IMG/VR virus record: IMGVR_UViG_3300045988_119787
Coordinates: 10,557 to 74,556 of that record
Reading direction: 5' to 3' (one strand)
From: a virus
DNA: 64,000 bases
The notes beneath the pieces are model-generated. The model searched no databases. It was not told the origin of the DNA and saw nothing but the letters and a program-made list of their open reading frames with translations. The translations under genes and the position numbers were made by a program. Positions 3 through 17,318 of the stretch are shown here, piece by piece. Each line of letters starts with the position of its first letter. Position 1 is the first letter of the stretch.

Positions 3-3000
3 TCCACCGGTGATGATACTTCATTGTCGGCATTGGGTCAGGCGGCATTGGGAGGATTCGAGCATGGTGCTACCACTGGTGCGATGTTCGGAGTATCGGG
101 TGCTATCATGGCTCCTTGGGTGTCAAAGTTCGGTATCACTGGCTTGGAGAAGAGCACAGGCGAGAAATGGCTGCATGGCACACAGAAACTTGGTGCTACC
201 GCCGCAGGTCTCGGCGTTGAGGCTGGGACCATGATGGTTGCCGACAATATCACTGGCGATAAGGACATTTCCTTTGGCACATGGCTTGAAGACGTGGTGA
301 TGGTGGGCGCATTCAAGGCAGGAGAGCCTAAGAATTACGCTCATATCGGAAATGCGTTGTATAATCTTACTCATAATAGCGGTGGTAATTTCGTGATTGG
401 AAAGAATACCAACGGCTCCCCTATCGCCGTGGATATTCGTCTGACTCCTGACGAGAAGAATGAATTGATTTCTTCTGCATCGGGCAAGAATCTGATGGAT
501 GCTTTCGTGAAGGTGGACCGTGCATCGAAGACAGCTCCAAGAGATTCGAAATACAAAACGGCATACACGGATTTTATGAACGACCCAGACGTTTCTCAGA
601 GCACCAAAGAGAAGGTGAATGCGGCCATGGGACTGTTTAACACGACAAGAGGTAAAAGCTACCGCAGCGTAAATGACGTGAAGAACAAACAGATTCTTGA
701 ATACACCAAGAACGGAACGCTGCTTACACGTACCTCTTATAAGAATGCCGATGAACGCCGTGCTATCCTTTACAAGCAGAAGCTTTATCGTGACAATGAC
801 GATATGATGTCGCTGATTGGCTATTCCAAGATGAAGGATATGCAGCTGACTGATGAGGACGGAAATGTTACCAGTCTGGCACTTGGCTTCCTCCGTAATA
901 ACGGCTATGACACAAGCAAGGATGTTACAGACCCGATAAACGCCCAGCTGATTAATGACTTGCGCAACCCGAAGAGTGCGCTCTATCTTGACTGGGAGAA
1001 GTATGTGGACGTTTACGGTTCGTATGGCGATCTTAAAGTAGAATCCGCAGACGTTGTTGGTGGTTTTATGGACACCTTGAAGAAGATGATCAACGACAAG
1101 GGAAACATGACGGTTGATATTGACAACATCATGCGCAAAGACCCGATGAAGCGCACCGACCAGGAGAACAAAATCTTCTATTATGTGAAGAAAGCACTCG
1201 AAGATGAGCTTTTCCCTAGCTGGAGGCCACACGCAGACCAGTCTGCCAGCCAAGGTAAGACGGTTGCCGAGGAGCATAGTCTGGGAACGGACGACCCGGA
1301 TAGCGGCGTGGTAGTTGATGAGTTGCGCAACCTTCGCAATGCCGAGCAAGCCCTTGATGCAGCGATGGATAGCAACGATGTGTTCAAGCAAACCTTTGAG
1401 AAATTGCACCAGCAGGGCTTGACACCGGCACAGATTTACGATGCACTCATTCAGAATGGATTGACCCAAGAAGAGTTAACCCCACTTGCCCAATATATCA
1501 ATGCGAACGCTAGAGTGCAGGGTATGCAGCAGGCTACTGCTGATGTCATAGAGGAAAACGTGAAGAGCTTTATTTCTGATTGGAGCTATCACGGAACATT
1601 GAACGGTCAGGCGATGAATGGCGAGCAAGCTTTGTACGTGCAAGACAGCAACGGAAGAACACTTCTTGTTGGTTCAGGTGATGTTGCCTTCGACCAGACT
1701 ACAGGTAGAGCCAAGGAAGGTAGCGGTGATATGCTTGTCTGCTTCGACCCTAACACCAGGGAAATGGTCTATGTGAAGGCAGATGAGGTTACTCTGTTTC
1801 AGAATCAGCCTATCGACCAGTTCGCTGCAGAATATCGTCAGAGATTGCAGATGAAGAACTCTGAGCCTTATAATCAGGCGGCACAGGAACAGGCGATGCA
1901 GGATGCTGCAAAGCCTCAGCAGGAGCAGGAGGCACCACAAGATAATACCACAAAATCGGAAGATAATACCACAAAAGAGGGTGATTTAACAAAAGATGAT
2001 ACCACTTTAACAAAAGTTAATACCACATCGGGCAAAGATAATACCACAAATGAGAACTTAGCACCACAAGAGCAGCCTCAACCTAGCAGAAAGTTTGCCG
2101 ATGGTTCAGATGTTCCTATGGCTACGGACAGCAAGGGAAGACCTACACCTGACTATGAGAAAATGACTCCTGAACAGAGTGCAGAGATTCTTACTGAGGA
2201 CTTCGGGGATAATGCCGAGAAGGTGGTGGACGGACAGATTCAGAAAGCAGAGAAGGCTTTGAAGGATGCCGAGAAGATGAAGGTGGACTATACCGCCGAA
2301 CCTAACGACATCATGGAGCAGGAGACTTTGAAGAACCAGACTATTGAAGCTGCCAAGAAGCAGTTGGATCACGCTCAGAATATCAAGAAGGCTATGACTG
2401 CCAAGAAGGTTGCAGAGACTGTTGGTAAGACAGAACAGACTGAGGGCGCACATGAAGCTGGTAGCGTGGCTGCACAGAAGTTTGTAAATGCACCTAGGCT
2501 TATAGGCAATAAGCGCACAAGAATGCTGCCTGACGGAGAGACCAAGATTAAGGGACACTATGAGATTGTTCCGGCTGAAAGTCTTACTCCTTCTCACGAT
2601 GTGAACAATGGTTACAAGAAATCTGAGGGATTCCCTACCGATGCTGAGGGCAGAACTGTGAATGATCGTGACTATGAACACGACAAGGCTGCTCAGCAGA
2701 ATACGGACCAGATTGCCAGGAAGTATAACGGTATGGCTATCGAGCAGGTGCCAGTGGTATCTGACGAGGGTATCGTATATGATGGCAACGGTAGAACGAT
2801 GGCAGGACAGAAGGCGGCAAAGGAAGGCACAGACGCTGAATACATCAACGACCTCTTGGAGAATGCCGAAAACTTCGGCTTCACAAGAGAACAGATTGAA
2901 CAAAGCGGTATCGAGCATCCACGTCTGGTAATGGTTACGGATGAGAGATTGCCATACGATGCGGCTACCTTCGCCAAGTTCAACCGAAACGAGAAGAAGA

Positions 3001-6000
3001 CACAGAGCAATACCGAACAGGCGGTAGCCAAGGCTAAGACCTTGACTTCTGACGAGGTAGGCGCGATTGTTGCCGAGATTGAGGGAAATGGTTCTCTTGA
3101 TGCATTCTTTAACAATTCCAAGGCAATAAATGACTTGGTAAAGACGTTAGTAGATAAAGGAATCATCGGACAGAACGAGGTGGCACAAATGATGGATAGC
3201 CCTGAGCGCCTTTCAGCACAAGGCAGGGAGTACGTGAAGAACCTTCTTTTGGGTTCAATCTTCAAGCCAGAGACTATCAGAATGCTGGGCATCGACTCTA
3301 CGGTGAAGAATAAGGCTATCAACGCTATCCGCTCGGTGATGGACAACATGAAGCTGGGCGAGTTCTCTCTTCGTGATGAGATTGATCAGGCTATCCAATT
3401 GCTCTATGAGGCAAGACGGGGTGGCAACAAGGTTGATACGCTGCTGAGGACACCATCCATGTTCGGTGAGGATGCAGCTAAGCGTTACTCTTCTATCTCT
3501 CAGATGATGGCTTTGGCCCTAGAAGGTAAGGTATCTGATTTCAGAGATTTGCTTGACGAGTACAACCGTATTGCTGCAGCAAGAAATACTGGCGAGGGCG
3601 ATGTATTCGGCGAAGCACCTACCAAACCAGAGTTGATAAAAGAATTTATGGACTTTAAAAAATGGCAAGATTATGGAACAGGACATTCAGAAAATGAAAG
3701 AGGCAATGATGTTTCAGGCATTGAAGAACCTCAACAAGAAGCATCAGGAGGAAATGAACCAGCAGAAGCAGAGCGACCAAGAGTAGAAGAACCAGAAGTA
3801 GGTTCTCTCCCACTCCTTCCAAAGGAAGAGAACCCAGACCCTCAGTTTAACCCGATTGAGGCAGCTGCAGCAGAGTTCAAGAAGGAGCATCCTTTAACCG
3901 AGGAAGAGATTATGAAGGCAGACGTGGACGATTTATCCAAGGATATGGCGCTTGACTATCAGAACGGAGAAGTGACAGACGATTTGCACCGTGCTATCTA
4001 CGAAAGCATCTATGCTAAACGCAAGGGATTGAAGGCTGAACCAAAGGTTGAGACTCCTAAATCTGAACCATCAGCTGACCCAATGGAAGCTTTCAAGAAT
4101 GCTGCAGAAGGGTTCGAGAAGGAGAAGAAGGGTAAAGCAGAACAGCCAAAGAAGCCTCAGCAGACTGCTGACGATGCAGCAGTAGCGGCTTCTAACAAGA
4201 AGGTTAATGACCTTTGGGATATGCTCAAGAATGCCGGCAAGGATGAAATGTCTGCTTCGTTTGTTGGTCTTAACTCTAGACAGCTGGAAGTATTGCCTAA
4301 GCTGGTGAGCGCCATGGCAGAGAATGCTTATCTGAGAATCAAGAGAGGTATGCACAATCTTGAAGACGTGGTGAAGGAAATGCGCAAGGAGTTTGCTCCT
4401 GCTTCCAAGATTTTCAAGAAGGAAGACGTGGATGCTATCTATGAGCAGATGATGAATATCCGCTATCGTGATGGTGAACAGCGCATGAGCTTGAAGGAGT
4501 GGGCTGACTACTACGAGAAGACTTCACCTAAGCATCAGGAAAATCTGGTGGGTGACTCCAAGAGTGCCGAGGAAAGAAAGATGGCTGAGAAGAAGTTTAT
4601 TGATGTCGTGAATCTACAGTTGGGCTTCAAACATAAGTTTAACGGTATTGTTGAGCTGAGAAAGATAGCTGAGAGACTCGGCTTGAAGGATATTAAGGAC
4701 ACAGACCTTCAGGAGCTTGCTGAAACTGCCATTGTTAAGCGTGCAAGAGGTATCGCTTCTTCTGAATCAACCAATAATGCCGAGAAGTTCAAACGCATCA
4801 AGACACTCTATGAGAATCAGCCGAGCCTCAACCAGCGTGATTCTGAGCGAGTGATGAAGCAGCAGTACTCTACCCCTGCCCCTTATGCTTTCCTTGCGGA
4901 TATGTATGTGAAGGGTAACGGTAAGGTGATTGAGAGTGCTCTGGAGCCAAGTGCCGGCAACGGTATGCTTACCATCGGTCTGCCAAAGGATAAAGTGCAT
5001 GTGAACGATATTGACGATACGAGATTGCTGAATCTTAACAGACAGGGCTTCGGAAAGGTGACCAGTCAGGACGGAACTCAGCCATTCAACGTAAAGCCTG
5101 TTGATATTGTGATTACCAACCCACCATTCGGTAGTGCTACCCCTAAGGAGTATGACGGCTATAAGATTTCTTCCTTGGAAGGACAGATGGCTATCAATGC
5201 CCTGGAGAGCATGAAGGACGATGGTCGTGCTGCCATTATTATCGGCGGCAAGACGGAATACGCCAAGAACGGAAGTCTGAATCCGAAAGATAAGGCTTTC
5301 CTTGGTTATCTCTATAGCCACTATAATGTGGAGGACGTGATTAATGTGGATGGCGGTCTCTATGCAAAGCAGGGAACCAGCTACCCTACACGTATTATAT
5401 TAATAAACGGAAGACGCTTGGACGAGAATGCCTTTCCACCAGTAAAGGATAAGGCTAGAGCGGAAGCCGTGAAAGATTATGACGAACTTTATAAACGAAT
5501 TGAAGATGATATACTACGAGGTGAACGGATGGATTCTTCCATCGGAGGAGAAACAAGAAGTGCTCAACCAGAACTTGATAAACAAGGCGCTGCTGGTACT
5601 CCTAAAGAGAGAGTACGAGCAGGAGAACGAGGAGGAAGCAAACCAGATGGTGAGCGAGAGTCTGACCTATTTGACTCCACTTCCGTATCAGGAACCCATG
5701 ATGACTTGGAGAATCAACGAGGAACCGAGCCAAGAGAAGATGGAGGACTTTCTGGTGGAGATACTGGAACAGACAGAACAGGGACAGAGCCTTCTCAGAG
5801 CGAAGGAGCAACCGCTGGAACCAATGAACAGCGAGGAGCTGGATCAGGAGGAGCTGGACGGAATGACGCTCAGCCAAGTACTGATGAACCTGCCAGCGCC
5901 GGGAGCGGAAGCGGACCACGGGGACAATTACAGCGAGTGGACAAATCCGTACGTGGACTAAGCACAGAGAAAGTTACCTATACCCCAAAGAGTGGAAACC

Positions 6001-9000
6001 CTTTCACTCTGAAAGCCGTGATGCCTGCCGATCAGCAGGAAGCGGTAAACAAGAACCTTGAAAAGCTGGGCGATGCCGACCAGTTCCTGGTTGATGAACT
6101 TGGCTATAATGACAAGGACGATTTGTATTCTCATCTTGCAGCAGAGCAAGTTGACTCTGTAGCTCTTGCCTTGCAGCAGGCAAAGAAGGGCAACGCCTTT
6201 ATTATCGGAGATATGACTGGTATCGGTAAGGGAAGACAGGCTGCTTCACTTATCAGATATGCCAAGAAGCAGGGGCAGGTTCCTGTATATTTCACTAAGA
6301 CCGCTGGCTTGCTGAGCGATGTTTACCGTGACTTAGTGGATATTGGAAGCCCAGAGCTGAGACCATTTGTATTCGGTAGTGCCAAGGAAGCTGCCATTAC
6401 CGACTCAGACGGAAACGTAGTATTCTCCTTGCCATCTAAGAGTGAGGTGAAGCGAGTGCTTGACTACATCGAAAAGAACGGCAAGCTGCCAGAGGAATAC
6501 GACTACGTATTGACTACCTACAGTCAGGTAAGCAATGGTGTATATGAGTTTGATGAGGACGGCAACCGCAAGGAGAGAAAGCTTGCAAAGGGTAAATCAT
6601 TCGGTGCTGCTGCTCTGAGCGGACAGAAAAGACGTGATGCTATTGAAAAACTGATGGGTAACGCCTATCTTATCCTTGACGAAAGCCACACGGCTGGTGG
6701 AAATAGCGGTCAGGGTAACTATTTCCAACACATTATTCAGAAGGCAAAGAACGTTACCTTCTTCTCTGCTACCTTTGCCAAGCGACCAGACAATATGCCT
6801 ATCTACGCTTTGCGTACTGCCATGAACGAGGGCGGTATGAAATCATCCGATTTGATTGATGCGGTGAAGCGTGGTGGTGCAACCTTGCAGGAGATTATGA
6901 GCCAGACCTTGACACAATGCGGTCAGATGATTCGCCGTGAGCGAGATATGACTGGCGTAACCATCGACTGGAAGGCTATTGATGATCCTGAGCGAGTTAA
7001 GGAGCAACGAGAACAGTATGATAGTATCATCGGATTGTTTAATGATATTATCAATTTCCAGAAGAAATATGTTTCAAGTTACGTTGATGAACGTAATATT
7101 GAATTGGCAGACATCCAATCTACGATGGATATCAAGAAGGGCACAGAATCTTTAGGTATCAAGAATCAGCCTTTTGCCAGCAAGGCATTCAATACCGTTC
7201 AGCAGGTACTTCTCTCCTTGAAAGCGAAGTCTGCTGCAGAACGTGCAATCGACTATTTGAAGCAGGGGATGAAGCCTGTGATTGCATTGAACAACACCAA
7301 TGAATCGCAGACAGGAAACCTTGCACTTGGTGAGGAAATGGACGCACCAGACTTGGGCACATCTTTGAAGAAGGGTCTGGAGGGTACACTTCGCTACACT
7401 CAGAAGGATGCCAAGGACAATAGCGAAAGCGGTTATTTCAAGCTTGAAGACTTGGGCGAAGAGGCTGTTAAGGCTTATCACGAACTGGAAAAGAAGATTG
7501 AGCAGACAAGTACCGGTCTTTCACTCTCCCCTATAGATGTTATCAAGAACGAGCTGCAGAAGGCAGGTTATAAGGTTGGCGAGCTGACAGGAAGACAGAC
7601 CGAGTTTGTTTATAACGACAACGGAACAGTTACCAAGGTAAAGCGTGCTGATACCGACAAGAAGAAACTCGCACGCGACTTTAACGATGGTAAGATTGAT
7701 GCGCTTATCCTCAACAAGAGTGCTGCAACCGGTATTTCCCTTCATGCTTCGAGCAAGTATAAGGACCAGAAGAAGCGTGTGATGATCGTGGCGCAGCAGC
7801 AGCTTGACGTGAATGACGAGGTTCAGATGCGTGGACGTATCGACCGAACCGGTCAGGTGGCTAGAGGTGCATACGAGTATGTGGTTTCCCTTATCCCTGC
7901 CGAGCAGCGACTGCTGATGATGTTTAAGGCTAAGTTGAAGTCACTTGATGCCAACACGACTTCTTCTCAGAAGAGTAAGTTCAACGAAATGGAAGTTGCC
8001 GATATTACCAATAAATATGGTGACAAGGTGGTTAAGGAATACATGGCAGAGCATCTTGACCTTTATGCACGCATGGCTGATCCATTCGGATGGGAAAAGA
8101 CTTACGGTGATGATTTGAGTAGAATCAACCCACAAAACCTTGTTGTCAGTGGTGGAGGTGTCGGTGATGGTGAAGCTGGTGCCGATGCAAGCAAGTTGCT
8201 TGGACGTATGGCTTTGCTGAGAGTAAACGAGCAGGAGAAGATGTTGCAGGAGATTGGCGAGCTTTACGCCAACGAGATTCAGCGACTCAACGAAATGGGC
8301 GAGAACGATTTGGAGATTACCGAGCTGCCACTGAAGGCTAAGACTATCCACAAGGAAGTATGGAAGCAGGGCGCTGAGCCGGGCGGCGATAACGCCTTTG
8401 CCGACAACACCTATATAGAAAAGGTGAACATGGCTATCTTGAAGAAACCGATGAAGGCTTCTGAGGTGAAAGCTTCGCAGGAAGGCTTGACTGGCGGCAA
8501 GACTTGGGATGAATACAAAACCGAAAAGAAGACTGCCGTGAAGGAATACTTCGGCCAGAAGATTGCGAACGAGACTCAGAGGTATGAGGAGCGTGCGGTG
8601 AAGGCTGCAACCAAGGCAAAAGAGAAGTATATCAAGGATGGAAAGAAGGGTCAGGAGAAATCGGGCATGACCGATGAGCAGATAGAAAAGAATGCTGAAT
8701 ATCAGTACGAGACTATCTACAAGCAGGAGAAGGATAAGCTGGATGATGTAGTGAAGAACTTGAAGGAGAAGGCAGAAATGTTTGACCGTGTTCTTGACAC
8801 CTTCGACACCAACCAGACTTTCGTTCTGCCTACGGACATGAACAATCCTAACGAGTTGAGCGGATTCGGCAACAGCTACGGTAGACTGATTGACATCAAG
8901 ATTACTGATAACTTCTCGCCTAACGCCTCTTCTGTTTCCTTTGCAACCTTGGATGGCAGAAGAAAGATTACCTTCCCTATCGCTGGCAAGGTTGGTGCAG

Positions 9001-12000
9001 GTGAAAACAAGGCAGACATTATCGGCGCCATCGACAACATGACTAAGCAGGCAATCGGTATGGGAGACAGCCATCTCAGAGTATTGAACCAAAACTTTGA
9101 TAACTGGGATAGACTGACTAGCAATGAGAGCCGCAAGAATGGCTATATCGTGACCGGTAATCTGATGCAGGCTTTGGTTGACAGTAAAGATCAGGGCTTG
9201 GGCGGTCAGTTGGTGAAATATACTACTGATACTGGCGAGGTGAAGACTGGTATCTTGATGCCAGACAGATTCGACCCTAAGGGCTTGACAACGGATGCGC
9301 CTATCAACAGCGTGACAGAGAAGTTTGAGCTTTCATCATGGCATGGTGGTATTGACGAGGTTACTTCATCGGATGGTGAAGTAAAGGTGAAGCGCATAGA
9401 CAACAATCGTGGCTACTTCTACGAGCTTCGTGTACCGAAGAGCAAGGCGAAGGGCGGCAAGTACTTCATGGATGAAGATTTGCTGAAACTGGTTAATGGC
9501 AATAACTTCGAGACCAGAGGCAACAATATGCTTGCTGAGTTTAAGCCAGAGCAGTTGAAGCCAGTACTGGACCGCCTGTCTAAAATGGGCGTGAAGGTGC
9601 AGGAGGAGCGCAAAACTTCTGAGGATGAAGGCACCCACTTCCGTGAGGACCGAGGCTTGCAGTATTCTAAAACAGATACAAAAGATGTTAAGAAAGGTAG
9701 AATCATTCCCGAAGATGTAGATAAAAATGTATCTTCGCAGATTGAAAAGAAGTTTGATTCTACCATTAAGGACATCGAAGAGCATACAGAAGACAGAGAT
9801 AAATCTTTGTTTGCTGATAATCTTGAATCTGCTCTGGATGAGTTTTCTGATCTTGGTAGAAGCGTTATTGAATATTACAAGAATGATTATGAACGAAAAG
9901 TTGAAAAGTTATCAGGACAGCATACCGGAGGACATCTTGGTGGTAAGAATGACGGTAAGGGAAATAAAGGCTCTTATCTACTGCAATATTATAAGACCGT
10001 TCTCGCCGTCGCTGACAGAGAACTTGCCTATAGAGACGCTAGAGCAAAGAATCTCAGAGAGACTTGGGGATTGCAGCCAGGAGGAGCGTTCACACTTGGA
10101 GCCGTTGAACGAATTTTTAAAGAAACAAATAGAGATAAAGGAAAGGCTGAACTCTTCCAAAGAGTTCTCGATATAAACAAGCGTCTTGGTGTAAACATCA
10201 AGGTAAGTGCCGAGAGTCCGAAGAAGAGATCTGGAGAAGCAGACACCAATAGAAACATTGATTTGTATATTGATGGTCTGACAAAAACAATGGCTCCAGA
10301 CTACGCTGCCCCTACTATTATGCTGCATGAAATGATTCATGAGGTAACAATGGGTGCTATCAATCTCGTTAAGAAAGGTAAGGCTGAGGGCATACTGACC
10401 CCTAAGCAGATAGAGGGCGTAAAGACTATCCTCAAAATCTATGACAAGGTAAAGGACGATAAGGAACGCTTCAAAGAAGAGCCTTACGGTCTGACTGATG
10501 CTTACGAGTTGACTGCTCAGATGGCAGATTCTAGACAGAGAAAGGCGATGGACTTGTCTATCTGGGATAGAGTTATGAATGCAGCACACGAATTTGCAAG
10601 AAGGGGCGATCGCTCTATCTTGCAGAGAGTGAAGGATGCCATCAAGAAACTGTTTGAGGTTTCTGACAAGGATAAGATGGATAAGGCTATCAACGACATC
10701 ATGGATGATTTCAATGAAACCATTGATGATATTTCCATGAATGAGATTGAACAGGATGGATTCGCCTACAAGGTTACAGACAAGGATGAGCTGGACCGCC
10801 TCAACAAGGAAAAGACTTTCAGAATGTATAGCGGAATGCAGGAGGTGGACGGAAAGTTGTACTCCCCTATGGCTGCGATCATTGACGGAAAGCGTACCGA
10901 TGCTACCGAGATTGGCGCTTGGATGGGCGCAGACGAGCGACCTGACCTTGTGAAGAACGGAAAGTTTACACTTGTGAAGACTGATAAGAATAAGGGTGTT
11001 GGCGAGGGTGATGTGCCTGCTGCCTACAATCCTTATATGCACACCTCCACTTCTATGATGAACGACCAGTTTACCGGTGCTTACGCTAGAGGCAACATCA
11101 AGGTTGTGGAATGGGAGATTCCTGAAAGCGAGAAGACCAGTGGCTATCGTGCTGAGGGTGCAAAGGATGCTGTGGGTCTTGTACCTTGGCATTCGGGTTC
11201 GGTTAATAGTTTGCTGCCGAAGGACAGACAGAGACAGGTGATGTTGTCACGCTGGAGAAAGGCGGTGAGAGTGGTTCCTGATTCAGAGGTGGCTGAGAGT
11301 ATCGCAGAACAGTTGAAGGGTACAGGCTTGGCTATCCCTTGGAATGTGGTTACTCCTAATCAGGTTAGGGAGTTGGCTAAGCTGGGCGTACCTATCACTA
11401 CCGTTGAATCGGGAAGACAGGCTCCTGAAACCAAGGAGAAGTTCTTGCAGCAGATGGCTGAACTGGAACAGGAGTTCCCTCAAGCTAAGTTCGTTAACGT
11501 GAAAATGTCAAAGGATGCCTTCAAGGTATGGGGCAAGGACGGAGGCACCAAGTTCCGCACGGACCATGGAGAAAGTAGCTACCCTACTTCATCGGTTGAG
11601 AGCCATGTGGAGAAGGTGGCTCAGAAGACTGGCGCAAAGGTGAACATGGTTTCATCAGTTGATGAAATCACCAACAAGGCTGCTAAGGCTGCTATTGAGG
11701 AAGGTAGAAAGATTACTGGCTGGTATGACGAGAAGACTGGCGAGGTACATCTTTATATGCCTAATATCCATGACAGATATACTGCCGAGAAGACTATCTG
11801 GCATGAGGTGGTTGGTCACAAGGGAATGAGAGAGTTGTTTGGTGAAGACCGATTCAACCAGTTCCTTCGTGATGTTTGGTACGACTTGGATAAGCCTGAG
11901 AATGCCGAATTGAAGAAGCTGGTGGATGAGGAGAGAAGATACAATCCTCTGAATATCTATGATGCCATAGAGGAAGGTATCGCCCGACTCGCCGAGGATG

Positions 12001-15000
12001 GCAAGGGTGAACCGGGCTTCTGGAATGGTATCAAAAACAAGGTATCTGATTTCCTTCATGAAATCGGTTATCGTATTGCTCCTAATACTAAAGATGTGAA
12101 GTATCTGCTCTGGTTGAGCAAGAACTTGCAGAAAAATCCGAATGACCCTTATTGGAAGCTGAGAGCCGAGGCGGTGAAATTCCGTCTCGACCATGATCGT
12201 GTGCCTGCTGTCGTGGCGCATGATGGTATGTTCTACGGAAATGACGGTAAGGTCCGCAGTATGGAGAGCATGACCAAGAGCGAATGGAACGAGGCTACAG
12301 ACGGACAGATTCACTTCCGTACTACCCCATCTGCCGGCACAGCACTTGACAGATACCACCGTTCGCTGGATGAGCACGGCTATATGTTCACCGAGAGCTA
12401 TATGGATAATATGCTTTCGTTGAAGAAGTTGATGAATGCGATTGTGCCAGATAAGAAGATTGAGGATATTGCTTCTTCGGAGAATCCTTATATACTGCAG
12501 AACACCATGCAGGGTGCGATGAGTGATGCGGCTCAGATGTTTGAGCGCAACGTAATGAAGCCGCTTGACAAGGCGATGGCTGGTGTGCTGGATGCCTTTG
12601 ATGGCAAGAAGGATGATGAGAAGATTAGAAACTTCAATCTCTACATGATTACCAAGCATGGTTTGGAGCGAAACAGAGTGTTCTTTGTTCGTGACTTCCT
12701 TAGACAGATGAGAATGTACGAGAAGAAGAAGCAGGATGCAGACATCTTGGAGAACCGCTGGAGTAACGAGAAGGAACGTCTGGATAACGAACTGAATGCT
12801 GGTAACATCGACCTGAAGGAGTACTACAGACAGATAGACGAGTTTATCAACAACGAAATCGACCCAGACTATAAGGCTGGCGAACACGACTATTCGGGTA
12901 TTCACGCTATACAAGAGGTAGCAAAGTCTTCTGACCCATACGATGATGCAGAGGCTATCGCTAGCGTGATGGATTCGGAAGCTAAGATGGAGAGCATCAA
13001 GAAGGGAGCTGTGAAGGACTATTGGGATAAGGTGAAGGCTGCAACCCAGTATTCGATTGACAGCGACTACAAGAATGGTATCATCAGCAAGGAGTTGCAC
13101 GGTCATGTATCTAATATGTTCAACTGGTATGTGCCTTTGAGAAAGTATGATGAGGCTACTGCAGAAGATACTTATGGCTACATTACTGAGCAGGGAGACC
13201 CGAAGAGTTACATCGGAAGCACCATCATGAGAGCAAGAGGACACAAATATCTGAGTGAGACAAATGTGCTGGCGCAGATTGGTGCGATGGGTAACAGAGC
13301 TATCAAGAACGGCGGTATGAATGCTATCCGTCAGGCTTTCGCAAGATTCGCGCGAAATAATTCGGGCAATAATCTGATTACAGAAACGAGTGTATGGTAT
13401 GAGAAGGACCCAATGACCGGTATTGTTTATGAGCGCTATCCTGATATTCCTGAGGACGCTACACCAGACGAAATCAACCAGATAGTTGCAGACTTCAATA
13501 CAGACATGAAGGCAAAGGCTGCACAGGGCTTGGCATCGAAGGTTTACCGCAGGGGCAGTATCGGCTATAAGTTCCAAAGAGCTGAGAATAAATCACAGCA
13601 TATCGTAGACGTGAAGATTGCCGGCAAGACTCATTCTTTTGTTATCAACGGAAATCCCAGAGCAGCGCAGGCATTGAATGGGTTGCTGGAGAACTCTAGC
13701 GCCAAGGGATTCATGAAACCTTTGAGCACTATTTCTAGAATGATGGCACAGCTCTGTACTTCATACAACCCTGAGTTCGTGATGAGAAACGCCTTCCGTG
13801 ATGCTGAGTTTGCTTCGAGCAACGTTACATCGAAGGAAGGTGCAAGATACGGGGCACTCTGGGCTAAGTACTACGCACAGCTGGGTCTGTATAAGGGCGC
13901 ATCGAATATCAGCTTGAAGGATTTCAGCGGTTCTACGGGTTTGGGATTGTTCGCAAAGTATCGTAACGGCACACTTGATATTTCTGACAAGGTTCAGAGA
14001 TACTTCAAGGAGTTCATGGAGAACGGCGGTGAGACTGGTTGGGTTCAGATCAAGAACATGAAGGATTGGACCAAGGAATACAAGAAAGACGTGAAGGACG
14101 AAAGAAGCAAGCTGAACAAGGGCGGTGAACTGGTACGTGATTTCTTCTTCGGTAACTTGGAGAACGTGAATGAGGTGGCAGAGAATATCGCCCGATTCAC
14201 TACTTACTGTACGAGTCGTGATTATGGACGTTCCGTTATCCGCTCTGTCTATGATGCCAAGGAAGTATCTACCAACTTCAACCGTCATGGTAGCGGTGAT
14301 GCCGTCAAGAGTTTCAAGAACGGTGAAATGACTGGAACCAAGGCTGCAAGAAGATGGGCATACGGATTTACTTCCGGCTATCTCAGACACTGCTCTATGT
14401 TCTTCAACGCTGGTATTCAGAGTACGAACCTTCTTGCGAAGAACTTGAAGAATCATCCTGTAGGAACTTCCATCAACATGCTTGCCATTCCTTTTGCACT
14501 CGGTGCGCTGGCTGCACTTGGAAACAATGTGCTGATTGCGAGTGAGGACGAAAAGGACAGAAAGGGAGTGAAGGACCCATACGGTGAACTGCCTGACTAC
14601 GTGAGAAGGAACAATCTCTGTATCTACAAGGGAGGCGGTCAGTTTATCACGATTCCGCTTGCCATCGAGTTAAGAGCTTTCTATGGCTTGGGTGACTTGG
14701 CTGCAGGCTTGACCTTCTCGCCAAACGTGAGCGGACAGAAGAATCCTTACTTAGATGCCGTGGGCTGTATGTCGCAGCTGGTTCCTGTGATGGACTATCT
14801 CGGTAACTCTTCGGCAGGCAAAGAACCGATTAACGAGACCATCAAGGCTATCTCTCCTTCTGCCCTATCTCCATTCGTTGAATGGGAGTTAAATACCGAC
14901 TGGAAGGGTGCGCCTATTGAGAGACGTGGCGACTGGAACGAAAATTCCCCTGCTTGGCAGAGAGCCTACAAGGGTATTCCTGACGGTTATATGGCTGTAA

Positions 15001-15551
15001 ACAAATGGGTGAATGCCCAGACAAACGATGTAGCCAAGGGTAACGAGGATATGCTGGGTAATAGTTTCCTGGATATGGTAACGAACCCTAGTATGCTGAA
15101 TCATTACATCGGCGGTCTTGGCGGTGGTGCTGCTACCTTTACTGAGCGTGCTATTGGTGTTGTGAAGCATGGAAATGATACGGAAACCAAGGATATTCCT
15201 TTCCTTCGCTCCCTACTCTATACGCCTAGCGAGCAAAGCAGCTTGCAGAGAACCAAGAGCAAGTGGTATAACTACAAGGACGAAATGGAAAAGACCATGG
15301 CAAATGTGGACCGTCTGAAATCCAAGAACGTTCCGATTGATAAGAGAATCACGAATATTGGGGAATATTATCACTTCCAAAACTCCAAGGAAGCTGCCAA
15401 GGTGAGAGTAATCGAGCTGGCAGAGAAACAGATGAAGCGCTGGAAGAAGATGAGGGATAAGGCTAGCGATACAGAAAGCATCAACTTCGCTAATCAGAAT
15501 ATTGATAGGATCATGATGGATGCGGTGGACGAACTGGATAGACTGGAATAA
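3..15551 (+). CDS. Giant multidomain 'polyvalent' protein (>=5175 aa; reading frame open to the window edge, so 5'-partial): ParB-like, N6-adenine MTase, Sno/SNF2-like helicase, two zincin modules, C-terminal TM segment
   Basis: Uninterrupted ORF in frame 3 ending TAA 15549-15551. No stop lies between position 3 and the TTG at 24 used by the ORF track. Catalytic motifs are listed as sub-features. Architecture matches polyvalent and DarB-like proteins of phages and conjugative elements. Confidence 0.85.
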   Translation, partial: STGDDTSLSALGQAALGGFEHGATTGAMFGVSGAIMAPWVSKFGITGLEKSTGEKWLHGTQKLGATAAGLGVEAGTMMVADNITGDKDISFGTWLEDVVMVGAFKAGEPKNYAHIGNALYNLTHNSGGNFVIGKNTNGSPIAVDIRLTPDEKNELISSASGKNLMDAFVKVDRASKTAPRDSKYKTAYTDFMNDPDVSQSTKEKVNAAMGLFNTTRGKSYRSVNDVKNKQILEYTKNGTLLTRTSYKNADERRAILYKQKLYRDNDDMMSLIGYSKMKDMQLTDEDGNVTSLALGFLRNNGYDTSKDVTDPINAQLINDLRNPKSALYLDWEKYVDVYGSYGDLKVESADVVGGFMDTLKKMINDKGNMTVDIDNIMRKDPMKRTDQENKIFYYVKKALEDELFPSWRPHADQSASQGKTVAEEHSLGTDDPDSGVVVDELRNLRNAEQALDAAMDSNDVFKQTFEKLHQQGLTPAQIYDALIQNGLTQEELTPLAQYINANARVQGMQQATADVIEENVKSFISDWSYHGTLNGQAMNGEQALYVQDSNGRTLLVGSGDVAFDQTTGRAKEGSGDMLVCFDPNTREMVYVKADEVTLFQNQPIDQFAAEYRQRLQMKNSEPYNQAAQEQAMQDAAKPQQEQEAPQDNTTKSEDNTTKEGDLTKDDTTLTKVNTTSGKDNTTNENLAPQEQPQPSRKFADGSDVPMATDSKGRPTPDYEKMTPEQSAEILTEDFGDNAEKVVDGQIQKAEKALKDAEKMKVDYTAEPNDIMEQETLKNQTIEAAKKQLDHAQNIKKAMTAKKVAETVGKTEQTEGAHEAGSVAAQKFVNAPRLIGNKRTRMLPDGETKIKGHYEIVPAESLTPSHDVNNGYKKSEGFPTDAEGRTVNDRDYEHDKAAQQNTDQIARKYNGMAIEQVPVVSDEGIVYDGNGRTMAGQKAAKEGTDAEYINDLLENAENFGFTREQIEQSGIEHPRLVMVTDERLPYDAATFAKFNRNEKKTQSNTEQAVAKAKTLTSDEVGAIVAEIEGNGSLDAFFNNSKAINDLVKTLVDKGIIGQNEVAQMMDSPERLSAQGREYVKNLLLGSIFKPETIRMLGIDSTVKNKAINAIRSVMDNMKLGEFSLRDEIDQAIQLLYEARRGGNKVDTLLRTPSMFGEDAAKRYSSISQMMALALEGKVSDFRDLLDEYNRIAAARNTGEGDVFGEAPTKPELIKEFMDFKKWQDYGTGHSENERGNDVSGIEEPQQEASGGNEPAEAERPRVEEPEVGSLPLLPKEENPDPQFNPIEAAAAEFKKEHPLTEEEIMKADVDDLSKDMALDYQNGEVTDDLHRAIYESIYAKRKGLKAEPKVETPKSEPSADPMEAFKNAAEGFEKEKKGKAEQPKKPQQTADDAAVAASNKKVNDLWDMLKNAGKDEMSASFVGLNSRQLEVLPKLVSAMAENAYLRIKRGMHNLEDVVKEMRKEFAPASKIFKKEDVDAIYEQMMNIRYRDGEQRMSLKEWADYYEKTSPKHQENLVGDSKSAEERKMAEKKFIDVVNLQLGFKHKFNGIVELRKIAERLGLKDIKDTDLQELAETAIVKRARGIASSESTNNAEKFKRIKTLYENQPSLNQRDSERVMKQQYSTPAPYAFLADMYVKGNGKVIESALEPSAGNGMLTIGLPKDKVHVNDIDDTRLLNLNRQGFGKVTSQDGTQPFNVKPVDIVITNPPFGSATPKEYDGYKISSLEGQMAINALESMKDDGRAAIIIGGKTEYAKNGSLNPKDKAFLGYLYSHYNVEDVINVDGGLYAKQGTSYPTRIILINGRRLDENAFPPVKDKARAEAVKDYDELYKRIEDDILRGERMDSSIGGETRSAQPELDKQGAAGTPKERVRAGERGGSKPDGERESDLFDSTSVSGTHDDLENQRGTEPREDGGLSGGDTGTDRTGTEPSQSEGATAGTNEQRGAGSGGAGRNDAQPSTDEPASAGSGSGPRGQLQRVDKSVRGLSTEKVTYTPKSGNPFTLKAVMPADQQEAVNKNLEKLGDADQFLVDELGYNDKDDLYSHLAAEQVDSVALALQQAKKGNAFIIGDMTGIGKGRQAASLIRYAKKQGQVPVYFTKTAGLLSDVYRDLVDIGSPELRPFVFGSAKEAAITDSDGNVVFSLPSKSEVKRVLDYIEKNGKLPEEYDYVLTTYSQVSNGVYEFDEDGNRKERKLAKGKSFGAAALSGQKRRDAIEKLMGNAYLILDESHTAGGNSGQGNYFQHIIQKAKNVTFFSATFAKRPDNMPIYALRTAMNEGGMKSSDLIDAVKRGGATLQEIMSQTLTQCGQMIRRERDMTGVTIDWKAIDDPERVKEQREQYDSIIGLFNDIINFQKKYVSSYVDERNIELADIQSTMDIKKGTESLGIKNQPFASKAFNTVQQVLLSLKAKSAAERAIDYLKQGMKPVIALNNTNESQTGNLALGEEMDAPDLGTSLKKGLEGTLRYTQKDAKDNSESGYFKLEDLGEEAVKAYHELEKKIEQTSTGLSLSPIDVIKNELQKAGYKVGELTGRQTEFVYNDNGTVTKVKRADTDKKKLARDFNDGKIDALILNKSAATGISLHASSKYKDQKKRVMIVAQQQLDVNDEVQMRGRIDRTGQVARGAYEYVVSLIPAEQRLLMMFKAKLKSLDANTTSSQKSKFNEMEVADITNKYGDKVVKEYMAEHLDLYARMADPFGWEKTYGDDLSRINPQNLVVSGGGVGDGEAGADASKLLGRMALLRVNEQEKMLQEIGELYANEIQRLNEMGENDLEITELPLKAKTIHKEVWKQGAEPGGDNAFADNTYIEKVNMAILKKPMKASEVKASQEGLTGGKTWDEYKTEKKTAVKEYFGQKIANETQRYEERAVKAATKAKEKYIKDGKKGQEKSGMTDEQIEKNAEYQYETIYKQEKDKLDDVVKNLKEKAEMFDRVLDTFDTNQTFVLPTDMNNPNELSGFGNSYGRLIDIKITDNFSPNASSVSFATLDGRRKITFPIAGKVGAGENKADIIGAIDNMTKQAIGMGDSHLRVLNQNFDNWDRLTSNESRKNGYIVTGNLMQALVDSKDQGLGGQLVKYTTDTGEVKTGILMPDRFDPKGLTTDAPINSVTEKFELSSWHGGIDEVTSSDGEVKVKRIDNNRGYFYELRVPKSKAKGGKYFMDEDLLKLVNGNNFETRGNNMLAEFKPEQLKPVLDRLSKMGVKVQEERKTSEDEGTHFREDRGLQYSKTDTKDVKKGRIIPEDVDKNVSSQIEKKFDSTIKDIEEHTEDRDKSLFADNLESALDEFSDLGRSVIEYYKNDYERKVEKLSGQHTGGHLGGKNDGKGNKGSYLLQYYKTVLAVADRELAYRDARAKNLRETWGLQPGGAFTLGAVERIFKETNRDKGKAELFQRVLDINKRLGVNIKVSAESPKKRSGEADTNRNIDLYIDGLTKTMAPDYAAPTIMLHEMIHEVTMGAINLVKKGKAEGILTPKQIEGVKTILKIYDKVKDDKERFKEEPYGLTDAYELTAQMADSRQRKAMDLSIWDRVMNAAHEFARRGDRSILQRVKDAIKKLFEVSDKDKMDKAINDIMDDFNETIDDISMNEIEQDGFAYKVTDKDELDRLNKEKTFRMYSGMQEVDGKLYSPMAAIIDGKRTDATEIGAWMGADERPDLVKNGKFTLVKTDKNKGVGEGDVPAAYNPYMHTSTSMMNDQFTGAYARGNIKVVEWEIPESEKTSGYRAEGAKDAVGLVPWHSGSVNSLLPKDRQRQVMLSRWRKAVRVVPDSEVAESIAEQLKGTGLAIPWNVVTPNQVRELAKLGVPITTVESGRQAPETKEKFLQQMAELEQEFPQAKFVNVKMSKDAFKVWGKDGGTKFRTDHGESSYPTSSVESHVEKVAQKTGAKVNMVSSVDEITNKAAKAAIEEGRKITGWYDEKTGEVHLYMPNIHDRYTAEKTIWHEVVGHKGMRELFGEDRFNQFLRDVWYDLDKPENAELKKLVDEERRYNPLNIYDAIEEGIARLAEDGKGEPGFWNGIKNKVSDFLHEIGYRIAPNTKDVKYLLWLSKNLQKNPNDPYWKLRAEAVKFRLDHDRVPAVVAHDGMFYGNDGKVRSMESMTKSEWNEATDGQIHFRTTPSAGTALDRYHRSLDEHGYMFTESYMDNMLSLKKLMNAIVPDKKIEDIASSENPYILQNTMQGAMSDAAQMFERNVMKPLDKAMAGVLDAFDGKKDDEKIRNFNLYMITKHGLERNRVFFVRDFLRQMRMYEKKKQDADILENRWSNEKERLDNELNAGNIDLKEYYRQIDEFINNEIDPDYKAGEHDYSGIHAIQEVAKSSDPYDDAEAIASVMDSEAKMESIKKGAVKDYWDKVKAATQYSIDSDYKNGIISKELHGHVSNMFNWYVPLRKYDEATAEDTYGYITEQGDPKSYIGSTIMRARGHKYLSETNVLAQIGAMGNRAIKNGGMNAIRQAFARFARNNSGNNLITETSVWYEKDPMTGIVYERYPDIPEDATPDEINQIVADFNTDMKAKAAQGLASKVYRRGSIGYKFQRAENKSQHIVDVKIAGKTHSFVINGNPRAAQALNGLLENSSAKGFMKPLSTISRMMAQLCTSYNPEFVMRNAFRDAEFASSNVTSKEGARYGALWAKYYAQLGLYKGASNISLKDFSGSTGLGLFAKYRNGTLDISDKVQRYFKEFMENGGETGWVQIKNMKDWTKEYKKDVKDERSKLNKGGELVRDFFFGNLENVNEVAENIARFTTYCTSRDYGRSVIRSVYDAKEVSTNFNRHGSGDAVKSFKNGEMTGTKAARRWAYGFTSGYLRHCSMFFNAGIQSTNLLAKNLKNHPVGTSINMLAIPFALGALAALGNNVLIASEDEKDRKGVKDPYGELPDYVRRNNLCIYKGGGQFITIPLAIELRAFYGLGDLAAGLTFSPNVSGQKNPYLDAVGCMSQLVPVMDYLGNSSAGKEPINETIKAISPSALSPFVEWELNTDWKGAPIERRGDWNENSPAWQRAYKGIPDGYMAVNKWVNAQTNDVAKGNEDMLGNSFLDMVTNPSMLNHYIGGLGGGAATFTERAIGVVKHGNDTETKDIPFLRSLLYTPSEQSSLQRTKSKWYNYKDEMEKTMANVDRLKSKNVPIDKRITNIGEYYHFQNSKEAAKVRVIELAEKQMKRWKKMRDKASDTESINFANQNIDRIMMDAVDELDRLE
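1941..2050 (+). repeat. Degenerate tandem repeat (GATAATACCACAAAA-like, about 5 copies) encoding DNTTK-type low-complexity linker
   Basis: gataataccacaaaa occurs at 1941-1955 and 1962-1976, with diverged copies to ~2050. Protein reads DNTTKSEDNTTKEGDLTKDDTTLTKVNTTSGKDNTTNE. Confidence 0.7.
2550..3000 (+). other. ParB/Srx-like N-terminal domain within giant ORF
   Basis: HYEIVPAESLTPSHDVN...VVSDEGIVYDGNGRTMAGQKAAKEG. The DGxxRxxA-type arginine motif is typical of ParB-like nuclease/NTPase domains. Confidence 0.6.
4860..5412 (+). other. N6-adenine DNA methyltransferase domain (gamma-type motif order) within giant ORF
   Basis: Motif I LEPSAGNGMLTIG (~4944). Motif IV NPPF at 5118-5129 (VITNPPFG). 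Confidence 0.8.
5520..5940 (+). other. Disordered Gly/Ser/Glu/Arg/Thr-rich linker between MTase and helicase
   Basis: GERMDSSIGGETRSAQ...GTDRTGTEPSQSEGATAGTNEQRGAGSGGAGRNDAQPSTDEPASAGSGSGPRG; no hydrophobic core. Confidence 0.6.
6150..7900 (+). other. Strawberry-notch/SNF2-like superfamily-2 helicase core within giant ORF
   Basis: P-loop GDMTGIGKGRQAA (GIGKGR 6219-6236). DExH box LILDESHTAGG (DESH 6678-6689). Motif V-like KSAATGISLHAS. Motif VI QMRGRIDRTGQ (~7824). Confidence 0.8.
10326..10340 (+). other. Zincin motif HEMIH (first metallopeptidase-like module of giant ORF)
   Basis: PTIMLHEMIHEVTMG; codons cat gaa atg att cat. Confidence 0.55.
11802..11819 (+). other. Zincin motif HEVVGH (second metallopeptidase-like module, polyvalent-protein type)
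   Basis: ITGWYDEKTGEVHLYMPNIHDRYTAEKTIWHEVVGHKGMRELFG. Confidence 0.6.
14470..14540 (+). other. Predicted transmembrane segment near C-terminus of giant ORF
   Basis: SINMLAIPFALGALAALGNNVLIA hydrophobic stretch flanked by charged residues. Confidence 0.45.
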
Positions 15552-15620: not shown

Positions 15621-16007
15621 CTAGAGGGGGCTTTTCTTGCTTGTGGCGGCTTGACAGAGGGAGCCTAGGAGGTAGCAGGGTTCTTCGGTGTTCATATTTA
15701 TTAGGAACTGCTCGGATATGTGCTGAACTACATGGAGCATTTCGTGGGTGAGGCTGTTTGTATATTCCCCTTTTGAGGTGGTCCGGCCTATTACTACTAT
15801 CGTTTTTCTGGTTTCTATGTTGGAATAGGTTATCCCTTTGTTTGCTTCGCCTTCGAGCACGAGATTACAGGCATCTTCGAGAGGAATGCCTGTGCATCCC
15901 AAATCCCGAAGATGCCTTCTTACCTTCATGGCATCCTTTGAGTGAACATCATACATCACATGTACCATCCAGTCATACCTTTCCAAGTAAATCTCCTGCT
16001 CTGTCAT
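15621..16007 (-). CDS. Small HExxH (zincin-motif) protein, last gene of orphan operon
   Basis: 128-aa ORF with ATG start. Motif SLTHEMLHVVQH. Confidence 0.6.
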   Translation of the reverse strand: MTEQEIYLERYDWMVHVMYDVHSKDAMKVRRHLRDLGCTGIPLEDACNLVLEGEANKGITYSNIETRKTIVVIGRTTSKGEYTNSLTHEMLHVVQHISEQFLINMNTEEPCYLLGSLCQAATSKKSPL

Positions 16008-16010
16008 ATT

Positions 16011-16424
16011 TTACAAAATGTCTTCCCAAGGAATGCCAATACCATTGAACGATGTATCTGCATAGAAGCGGTTGAAGATGAAACCGTCCTGCTGATCCTC
16101 ATCATCTACGTAGTCTTTGATGAACTGGGCCATTTGCTTTTCCTCCGTGATAGACGAACCGTAAAAATCAGCCAGGCACATGTGTGCGATGTAAACCGCA
16201 TCGTAGCCCACATTATTCTCCAGCACGATATTGTTCTTCTTCAAGATGTCCTCAATATCATCCTTGCTCATCATGCGGATAGGCTTACCGTTCTTCCGCA
16301 TCTGCTTAACTGCCCACTCACACATCTTCTTATTGAAGTGCCAGCCGTTGTATCTCAGGTAAGCCTTCATTTCCTCTGGCTGGTAATCGTAGGCGTTCAA
16401 AGATTGTCTGTATTTTCTTTCCAT
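16011..16424 (-). CDS. Hypothetical protein
   Basis: ORF 16011-16475 begins with TTG. First ATG (MERKYRQ...) is at 16424. Tightly packed with neighbours. Confidence 0.55.
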   Translation of the reverse strand: MERKYRQSLNAYDYQPEEMKAYLRYNGWHFNKKMCEWAVKQMRKNGKPIRMMSKDDIEDILKKNNIVLENNVGYDAVYIAHMCLADFYGSSITEEKQMAQFIKDYVDDEDQQDGFIFNRFYADTSFNGIGIPWEDIL

Positions 16425-16480
16425 AATCTCAATCAATTTAAGAAAGGGGTATGCCCACTTTTGAGCACACCCCAAACTAG

Positions 16481-16756
16481 TTAGTAATCTTCTCCGTAAT
16501 CACTTCTGTAATCACGTCCACGGTCTTCACGTTGGCGCATGTCGTCGTACTCTTCATGCTCTCGCATACCGCTTCTACCTCCACGACCTCTATAATCGGG
16601 CATGCGGTTGCGCTCGCCGTATCGGTCACGTCTACCTTCACGCTTCATTTCATTAAGGCAGCTCATAGCCTTGCCAAAGTAGCGCAATCCCTTCTCCACG
16701 TTCTCATACAAGCCATCAAACTTGTCTTCTGTAATCTCAACCATTATCATAATCAT
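16481..16756 (-). CDS. Hypothetical protein with Arg/Asp/Glu/Tyr/Gly-rich disordered C-terminal tail
   Basis: Start trimmed to ATG run at 16744-16756 to avoid overlap with the upstream gene. Tail reads RRDRYGERNRMPDYRGRGGRSGMREHEEYDDMRQREDRGRDYRSDYGEDY. Confidence 0.5.
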   Translation of the reverse strand: MIMIMVEITEDKFDGLYENVEKGLRYFGKAMSCLNEMKREGRRDRYGERNRMPDYRGRGGRSGMREHEEYDDMRQREDRGRDYRSDYGEDY

Positions 16757-16788
16757 AAGATTTTTTAAGTGAATAGATAGGTAGGAGA

Positions 16789-17289
16789 TTACTTGCTCAT
16801 GGTCTGCTGGAGCCATCCCATCATCTTGTCAATCTTGCCCTCAATGCCTGAAACCTTGCCTTCCAGTTTATTGATTTTCTCGGTCTGTTCCTTCTCCTTG
16901 GCTATCTGGGGGTTGAGCTGCAGTAGCATTCCCTCACAAGATTTAACGACTCTCTCATGGTAATCTACGCTCTCCAGTATCGCCTTGGATTGTCTCAGCA
17001 TCGCATCGACCTCGGCACTCATGGCTTCCTTGTTGTCGCTCACCACAAGGTTCTTGTCGTTGGCTATCTGTCCGTTAGCAGGTAACTGTTTGAAATCCAC
17101 TTCCTCATCATTGATCTTCACCTTCACATCAACCACAGTTTCCATAGGCTGAGGCGTGAAGCCATTATTGAAAGAAGGATATCTCGTCTGAGGGTTGCTC
17201 ACCGAAACAACCTGACCGATCTTCAAGTTCGGGTTCTCGCCCTTGTCGAGCACATAGAATAAAGAATTTGTTCTTAAACCTTGAAACAT
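16789..17289 (-). CDS. Hypothetical protein (beta-rich N-terminus, coiled-coil C-terminus)
   Basis: 166-aa ORF. AGGAG 8 nt upstream of the ATG. Confidence 0.6.
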   Translation of the reverse strand: MFQGLRTNSLFYVLDKGENPNLKIGQVVSVSNPQTRYPSFNNGFTPQPMETVVDVKVKINDEEVDFKQLPANGQIANDKNLVVSDNKEAMSAEVDAMLRQSKAILESVDYHERVVKSCEGMLLQLNPQIAKEKEQTEKINKLEGKVSGIEGKIDKMMGWLQQTMSK

Positions 17290-17318
17290 AATGTAATCTC
17301 CTATTATCTATTCTGTTG

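Follow-up and report, generated by a model that had tools for sequence, protein, structure and literature searches.

A giant phage-type polyvalent protein, its predicted modules and their relatives

One described system with which the giant open reading frame (ORF) reported here can be compared is DarB of phage P1, a protein of 2,255 amino acids (aa); the ORF opens a 64,000-nucleotide (nt) stretch of viral DNA (IMG/VR virus record IMGVR_UViG_3300045988_119787, positions 10,557 to 74,556), which was analysed as a whole and is called the window below. P1 DarB (~250 kDa) is packaged into the head via an N-terminal 30-residue signal, is believed to enter the cell, is encoded by a gene that adjoins the portal gene (PMC9024508), and protects incoming DNA from type I restriction (PMC5512222, PMC9024508). 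More broadly, polyvalent proteins combine many unrelated catalytic domains in one polypeptide, often exceed 2,000 aa, and are encoded near virion genes (PMC5512222). Their recurrent parts include a dyad of methyltransferase (MTase) and SNF2 ATPase, in which an 'EcoKI/TaqI-like' MTase is fused to SWI2/SNF2 ATPases, a DdrB-ParB domain, and one to five zincin metallopeptidases (MPTases) per protein, with LPD38 and DdrB-ParB being restricted to phage versions encoded among late genes (PMC5512222).

Larger proteins still are found in podoviruses, where giant ORFs annotated as 'DarB-like antirestriction protein' take up about a fifth of the ~60-kb genomes of Bcep22 (gp75, 4,602 aa) and JC1 (gp69, 4,515 aa). 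Bcep22 gp75 was reportedly published in 2011. JC1 gp69 was published in 2022 and covers 22% of its genome; ~79% identical to Bcep22 gp75 (table in PMC9144972), it was detected with 51 unique peptides by mass spectrometry of CsCl-purified virions, as the second-highest-scoring protein (PMC9144972). Here we describe the ORF in the window as one real gene whose product, judged by its sequence, is a phage-type polyvalent protein sensu Iyer et al. 2017. What is new are three of its modules, termed B, C and D, which are confidently modelled by structure prediction and have no solved structural neighbour, B and C also matching no Pfam family.

Extent and integrity of the giant ORF

Nucleotide coordinates are window positions, and residues are counted from window nt 3. 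The giant polyvalent-protein ORF spans 3..15551 on the plus strand, where in-frame translation reached a stop after 5,182 sense codons, with zero internal stops; its frame is still open at window base 3, the 5′ end being cut by the window edge (the ORF listing gives 24..15551, 5,175 aa counted from the first TTG). A preliminary description, made by a model from the sequence alone, had reported one uninterrupted frame here, open at the 5′ edge, which the translation confirmed, and all motifs that it quoted were found at their positions. Since ~4–5% stop codons are expected per random codon, an open frame of 5,182 codons is not a product of chance.

Continuity was further assessed with relatives. 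One of them, an independently assembled metagenomic contig named L003 (Logan ERR4087274_366), runs colinear with the ORF over its full length at ~90–92% nt identity. In it the region is annotated as seven genes and contains five frame changes, each a single-base deletion within an A- or purine-rich run; the remaining indels, of 12, 6 and 237 nt, are all multiples of three, and we therefore read the pattern as sequencing error on a continuous coding sequence. A representative protein library holds intact relatives of 5,334–5,932 aa (P0185–P0191), of which P0185 (5,932 aa) has a module order identical to that of the window ORF, and the cultured Bacteroides phages BS-TP4 and BKO1-TP3, both in GenBank, encode intact homologues of 5,391 and 5,553 aa. 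The contig of a 98%-identical protein, P0078, is a gapped scaffold and thus uninformative on continuity. Because the L003 breaks are error-like and intact long relatives occur both in the library and in cultured phages, the giant ORF is one real gene; the colinear contig and the intact relatives also largely dispose of the assembly chimera that the preliminary description had allowed for. Its view that the size is exceptional did not hold up, given the two Bacteroides-phage proteins, gp75 (4,602 aa), gp69 (4,515 aa), and metagenomic proteins of 5,932 and 7,283 aa. The ORF is of normal size for its Bacteroides-phage lineage.

At the N-terminus, the first residue of the ORF aligns to position ~477–534 of L003 and of all full-length relatives, which start with M..(D)KxxxLYxALKxDG. 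Because these relatives extend ~475–530 residues further N-terminally, the full protein is about 5,700 aa long, or roughly 630 kDa, with ~475–530 residues lying outside the window. The 496-aa N-terminal extension taken from L003 contains no Pfam domain, and thus no MuF/portal-association domain was found in it. An N-terminal 'LYxALKxDG(AV)' element is common to L003 (719-2206), P0182, P0184–P0188, P0190 and P0191, always from residues 1–3 onward and in two copies in P0185 and L003; the giants that carry it otherwise differ strongly in their middle sections. By analogy with the N-terminal 30 residues of DarB, the element is a candidate capsid-targeting signal.

Modules of the encoded protein

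The ORF brings together ParB, MTase, strawberry-notch (Sbno) ATPase, zincin and LPD38 domains in at least 5,182 contiguous codons. It contains hub domains of polyvalent proteins (the MTase-SWI2/SNF2 dyad, DdrB-ParB, and the zincin of module A) and both phage-only markers, LPD38 and DdrB-ParB, and it lies in a virion/late-gene neighbourhood, the window also encoding portal, terminase-like and tail-fibre-like genes. The earlier assignment to the polyvalent or 'DarB-like' class is thereby upheld, with ddrB-ParB, MTase-Sbno, zincin and LPD38 in one ORF. The combination had been called exceptional as well, which is true only narrowly: of the module-B representatives scanned, P0185 alone has the full architecture in common with the ORF, but shuffling of modules is normal in the class.

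The N-terminal half starts with a conserved region (aa 1–650, 3..1952, +) that is 43–76% identical to P0182 and P0184–P0187 and corresponds to positions ~477–1,170 in full-length relatives; its first ~90 aa are Ala/Gly-rich and weakly hydrophobic, with a hydropathy peak of 1.21 at aa 27–45. Pfam, NCBIfam and PDB-sequence searches with aa 1–650 returned no match, as did phmmer of both ORF halves against PDB sequences, and an NCBIfam scan of the ORF gave nothing meaningful. The hydropathy profile places a polar, low-hydrophobicity linker at aa 601–710 (1803..2132, +). A ddrB-like ParB domain with the motif DGNGRTMAG lies at aa 847–974 (2541..2924, +), where Pfam PF18763 matches at E 4.3e-10 with 40.2 bits (cut-off 27.6), which bears out the ParB-like domain of the preliminary description. 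Three stretches (aa 1–840, 975–1540 and 2780–3176) are kept in relatives though they match no family.

The MTase (aa ~1540–1830, 4620..5492, +) was identified by its motifs and by profile matches to HsdM. Its motifs are arranged in the gamma-class order, X (QQYSTP), I (LEPSAGNG) and IV (NPPF, nt 5118–5129, aa 1706–1709). In an alignment (A5) of the window MTase with those of BS-TP4 and L004 (a metagenomic relative discussed below) and the Pfam-detected Eco57I-type MTase of Bcep22 gp75, motifs X (Y-S/T-T/S-P), I (LEPxxGxG) and IV (NPPF) are invariant. The MTase profile matches HsdM of EcoR124II (4.7e-6) and of EcoKI (1.4e-4), and the window MTase as a single sequence has only weak, sub-threshold Pfam matches (MTS 0.014). 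At the level of motifs and profiles, the gamma-type N6-adenine DNA MTase proposed earlier is confirmed, and so is the strawberry-notch helicase, a superfamily 2 (SF2)/SNF2 ATPase at 6132..8321 (+). The N lobe of the helicase (aa 2044–2340) carries GIGKGR (Walker A) and DESH and matches AAA_34 at 1.5e-14, and its C lobe (aa 2523–2773) carries QMRGRIDRTGQ (motif VI) and matches Helicase_C_4 at 3.2e-25. MTase and helicase are joined by a polar stretch (aa 1841–2000, 5523..6002, +) that is probably disordered, judged by hydropathy, in line with the disordered linker described previously. The helicase is followed by a conserved region (aa 2780–3176, 8340..9530, +) that is shared with BS-TP4 gp3 (to aa 3202), P0185, P0191 and P0281 and has no Pfam family match.

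Further downstream, BLAST mapping of 75 database matches onto the ORF divided aa 3170–5182 into four exchangeable units. Module A (aa 3176–3590, 9528..10772, +) contains HEMIH at nt 10326–10340 (aa 3442), a motif of the HExxH type whose chance expectation in this ORF is 0.07. In an alignment (A3) of ten module A homologues at 25–57% identity, H273, E274, H277 and D255 are invariant, and E333, 60 residues beyond HExxH, is at least 90% conserved. The SprT-like model of Pfam is matched by six of the ten members (best 6e-4) and Peptidase_M90 by four, whereas the window module itself has weak matches to YgjP-like (0.076) and M90 (0.15), both on the same stretch; the Pfam MPTase-PolyVal model has no match in the ORF. 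These sequence features support module A as a zincin-like peptidase.

Module C (aa 3865–4036, 11595..12110, +) is marked by a conserved HE-x-(V/I)-(G/A)-H motif, HEVVGH at nt 11802–11819 (aa 3934) in the window, that is of the HExxxH and not the HExxH type and is invariant in homologues at 28–37% identity, with a conserved EE ~57 aa further downstream. Its AlphaFold model, which is confident, comprises a helix, three strands, the motif-carrying helix and then further helices, a predicted topology that resembles the MPTase core described in PMC5512222. No match was found for module C in Pfam (32 members) or among PDB sequences, nor for its model by Foldseek against the PDB at E<=1e-3. A relationship between modules C and A was considered and rejected, as hhalign matched only a trivial overlap of the two query segments. 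Module C is a possible divergent metallopeptidase by its conserved motif and predicted topology, and of the two zincins in the preliminary description HEMIH stands, its motif being invariant and SprT-like in six of ten members, while HEVVGH, as HExxxH, has only a compatible predicted topology.

Module B, a beta-rich domain at aa 3587–3852 (10761..11558, +), has the conserved motifs YRxM, DGKLYPPM, YNPYxH(T/S)S, NDQF, VExExPxSExTSGY, AKDxVG, LSRW and PDSEVA. It occurs in 800 representative clusters (50% identity), 738 of them at E<=1e-10, and its carriers are almost always phage proteins of 2,500–7,300 aa; the 146 newly returned proteins among the top 150 module-B representatives have a median length of 3,387 aa, with 24 at 5,000 aa or more and the largest at 7,283 aa. 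It is also the most promiscuous unit, its companions including ART-PolyVal, PBECR, MuF_C, C5-MTase, RadC and LPD3. The AlphaFold2 (AF2) model has a per-residue confidence (pLDDT) mostly >85. No Pfam match was found in 32 members, no PDB fold match for the model at E<=1e-3, and no match for a profile of modules B and C against PDB sequences; in a viral structure library the only matches were other phage polyvalent proteins. A conserved R...(S/T)S...ExE pattern in the module B alignments gave rise to the idea of an R-S-E ADP-ribosyltransferase (ART), which was rejected, there being no ART fold (Foldseek, E<=1e-3) and no Pfam ART match. Functionally, modules B and C may be further effectors of unspecified chemistry.

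Seven independent fragments (P0005, P0006, P0007, P0012, P0019, P0021 and P0024) begin exactly at aa 3608 (window ~10824), and those checked sit on short contigs. This suggests that metagenome assemblies break at the start of module B, as DNA shared between different phages.

Module D (aa 4096–5182, 12288..15548, +) is the conserved alpha-helical C-terminal module of phage-type polyvalent proteins, ~1,000 aa long. The LPD38 domain that it contains lies at aa 4858–5068 (14574-15206, +; Pfam 2.1e-24) and is preceded by the single strong hydrophobic helix of the ORF by hydropathy (aa 4827–4845, 14481-14537, +), which agrees with the transmembrane segment noted previously. Module D is found in at least 201 database clusters, always at the C-terminus and also as a stand-alone protein of ~1,000 aa, and has ~75 invariant columns among sequences that are ~30% identical; it is common to podoviruses of Vibrio, E. 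coli (Stx), Ralstonia and Burkholderia and is present in only 21 of 109 full-length module-B proteins. It is homologous to aa 3817–4510 of Bcep22 gp75 (E 2e-19, ~23% identity). Its AF2 model is one large helical body with a predicted template-modelling score (pTM) of 0.77, and its profile gave only chance-level matches against PDB sequences. The last ~1,100 aa, left without assignment in the preliminary description, are therefore a conserved LPD38-containing C-terminal module and not spacer.

Probable virion packaging and the competing explanations

Judging from sequence relationships, we consider it probable that the ORF specifies a very large polypeptide that is made late, packed into the capsid, and released into the host together with the DNA. 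The argument for packaging is that module D is shared with Bcep22 gp75, whose JC1 orthologue gp69 is in virions. Following late synthesis, the conserved N-terminus and/or module D would guide the protein to a place beside the portal in the capsid and later out through the tail, and the buried hydrophobic helix (aa 4827–4845) may help membrane passage as the giant protein is ejected with the DNA. Once inside, the translocase would carry the MTase along the incoming DNA, which would be methylated or shielded from type I restriction in the way that has been proposed for P1 DarB, the ParB-like domain would act on DNA or nucleotides, and the zincin(s) might cut the chain at the polar linkers (aa 601–710 and 1841–2000), separating modules with different targets. 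That the units could function separately is argued by their modular exchange and by the existence of split and fused variants, including L004.

A number of observations weigh against this reading. Packaging is carried across ~23% identity in one module, the true N-terminus lies beyond the window edge, and ~15 kb, including a block on the opposite strand, separates the giant gene from the portal gene. The MTase-helicase core failed to retrieve P1 when searched by tblastn against 50,697 phage records, and the MTase-Sbno core is far commoner on plasmids (547 records) than in phages, and on plasmids nothing requires it to be carried in virions. A Foldseek search of the PDB with module D, phage ejection and cargo proteins included, gave no match at E<=1e-3; since the module resembles no solved structure of either kind, assigning it a part in packaging or ejection is guesswork. 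Proteolytic processing and a peptidase role of HEVVGH are both putative.

The strong conservation of module D can also be read structurally: the protein may be mainly an internal-core or ejectosome component, in which module D and the N-terminal hydrophobic region form a DNA conduit analogous to those of T7 gp14/15/16 or P22 gp7/16/20, with the enzymes as passengers. No other part of the protein is nearly as conserved as module D, with its ~75 invariant columns; this module is always C-terminal and also stands alone, is modelled as a single large helical body that has a hydrophobic helix, and is common to podoviruses of the four host groups named above, all of which would suit such a conduit. 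We nevertheless regard it as unlikely, because module D has no fold similarity to any solved ejection protein, its numerous invariant polar residues are more suggestive of an enzyme or of a tight interface than of a channel, and it is present in just 21 of the 109 full-length module-B proteins, so that other giants manage without it. Less probable again, and in our view improbable, is a protein that is not packaged at all and works in the infected cell as an MTase-translocase complex, modifying replicating phage DNA or attacking that of the host, its fusion reflecting gene-cluster consolidation. Such a role would suit the ordinary genes that encode the MTase-Sbno core in the 547 plasmid records, the separate genes for the helicase and downstream parts in L004, and the distance of the window gene from the portal gene. 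It is harder to reconcile with the restriction of DdrB-ParB and LPD38 to phage-type, late-gene-linked polyvalent proteins (PMC5512222), with the physical presence in virions of the JC1 orthologue of gp75, which shares module D (PMC9144972), and with the cost of a 16–17-kb gene in a genome of ~64 kb or larger unless the product acts before phage gene expression.

An artefact of assembly or annotation, either a gene chimera or a run of genes with lost stops, is scarcely credible as the source of the single ORF. Close relatives are represented in the database only as fragments of 2,073 aa or less, L003 is annotated as seven genes, and many contigs are interrupted where module B begins, but the breaks in L003 are single-base deletions in homopolymer-like runs with all other indels in frame, library relatives of 5,334–5,932 aa are intact and have the same module order, and ORFs of 5.4–5.6 k aa are intact in cultured phages.

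Returning to a packaged and injected protein, a bolder version would hold that modules B, C and D are new domain families with folds absent from the PDB, that B is an injected effector enzyme, and that D is a new kind of machine for capsid incorporation and ejection; we regard this as a tentative proposal that may well prove wrong. If true, module D would define a large group of short-tailed phages delivering megadalton cargo. From an evolutionary perspective, a quarter of the genome spent on one protein implies strong selection for delivering an enzyme kit before phage gene expression, in a lineage some members of which are common Bacteroides phages of the human gut (31% of 930 viromes contained BS-TP4; PMC12694917). 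The value of the locus is not its size; it is a clean, intact example with mapped module boundaries, and culturable relatives allow direct tests of packaging, processing and anti-restriction activity. The remaining interest lies in module B, which is very widespread, and in the invariant-rich module D.

Phage context and comparison with described systems

The window is phage DNA, as seen from a P22-like portal (PF16510, 1.4e-24) and a terminase-like ORF, and it further encodes RecT, an SbcC-like ATPase and tail-fibre-like products, one of which has a CotH domain. When the neighbourhood was compared by megablast with the 50,697 phage records, no close DNA relative was found, and the only relatives of the portal protein in that set are those of BS-TP4, BKO1-TP3 and BF1-TP2 (32–36% identity), each of which also encodes a giant homologue. 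Database fragments of relatives come from human-gut and Bacteroidales/Prevotella sources.

The CotH kinase-type domain (Pfam PF08757, 8.8e-15) occupies aa 784–990 of a 1,090-aa tail-fibre-like ORF at window 20993-24265 (-), and the 18–24-kb region around this ORF has a GC content of 34–39%, markedly below the rest of the window. The sole long direct repeat in the window (22853-22903/23360-23410; 51 nt, 76% identity, 507 nt apart) is located inside the same ORF. A repeat pair of the template/variable type, as in diversity-generating retroelements (DGRs), was searched for in the window and none was found; BS-TP4 is reported to have a DGR (PMC12694917). Directly downstream of the giant ORF, a ~3.2-kb block of small genes (15693-18865) is inverted in L003 (18497-21664, 90% identical) and oriented as in the window in another relative, L006. 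Because inverted repeats flanking the block inverted in L003 were looked for and none were found, we read the inversion as a probable rearrangement and not as a demonstrable invertase switch. Two tRNA-like genes score above the Rfam tRNA threshold. The one at 58131-58203 (-; 52.4 bits) has an anticodon stem ctgca/tgcag around an 8-nt loop, aggaggtt, instead of 7 nt, and is called 'tRNA-???' with the 4-base anticodon gagg by ARAGORN. The other, at 57640-57748 (-; 47.6 bits), is 109 nt long, ~36 nt over a standard tRNA (intron-like or with a very long extra arm), and received no ARAGORN call.

The helicase has its nearest relatives on plasmids. There the MTase-Sbno core (aa 1546–2800) aligns over at least 80% of its length in 140 of the plasmid records, with a best identity of 39.6% to a Persicobacter (Bacteroidota) plasmid; the aligned part of the plasmids is annotated as separate strawberry-notch and N-6 methylase genes, in a non-virion context. 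Among cultured phages, tblastn found the core in just three of the 50,697 records, the phages returned being BS-TP4 and Acinetobacter phage MD-2021a alone. Another arrangement is seen in L004 (ENA ERZ13616064 NODE_4887, 377-10219), which is 53–75% identical to the ORF: module B is inserted between ParB and MTase, the linker that precedes the helicase contains an in-frame TAG (6209-6211) and a new gene start, and at the equivalent of ORF aa 3007/3013 there is a gene boundary or a change of frame. By this layout, the gene set exists in both fused and split form.

Compared with the polyvalent proteins surveyed by Iyer et al., the ORF carries the strawberry-notch helicase subtype that was noted there in only 'a few instances' (PMC5512222). 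For its modules B and C, the LPD and MPTase-PolyVal models of Pfam gave no match. P1 DarB likewise has an N6-adenine MTase fused N-terminally to an SF2 helicase, but it is less than half the size, its helicase belongs to a different subfamily, and P1 carries its ParB-like and MPTase domains on another protein, DdrB (PMC5512222). The kinship to P1 DarB claimed in the preliminary description therefore holds in architecture and fails in the tblastn search with the MTase-helicase core; as far as sequence goes, it is architectural only.

Bcep22 gp75 resembles the ORF in having an MTase and an SF2 helicase mid-protein and an LPD38 module at the C-terminus. Only the C-terminal ~700–800 aa of the two align, at 23% identity, and gp75 has features of its own, namely an SLT lysozyme-like N-terminus, an Eco57I-type MTase, a classical SNF2/DEAD helicase and LPD3. 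A Pfam scan of gp75 gave neither a ddrB-ParB nor a strawberry-notch match (modules A–C were not looked for there).

The Bacteroides phages BS-TP4 and BKO1-TP3 were described in a paper whose main text makes no mention of DarB or polyvalent proteins (PMC12694917), although BKO1-TP3 gp55 (5,553 aa) is annotated as 'DarB-like antirestriction'. Their homologues differ from the window ORF in having no modules A and B, and their genes lie immediately upstream of the portal gene and abut it, whereas the window gene is ~15 kb away; BS-TP4 gp3 also has an InPase domain, which the window ORF does not. In other respects BS-TP4 gp3 (5,391 aa, XPO95421.1) is built like the window ORF, with ddrB-ParB, MTase, Sbno helicase and an LPD38 C-terminal module, and it is 40% identical over aa 1546–3202 and 28% identical over aa 3896–5138. 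The BS-TP4 portal is 36% identical to that of the window, placing both in the same phage lineage.

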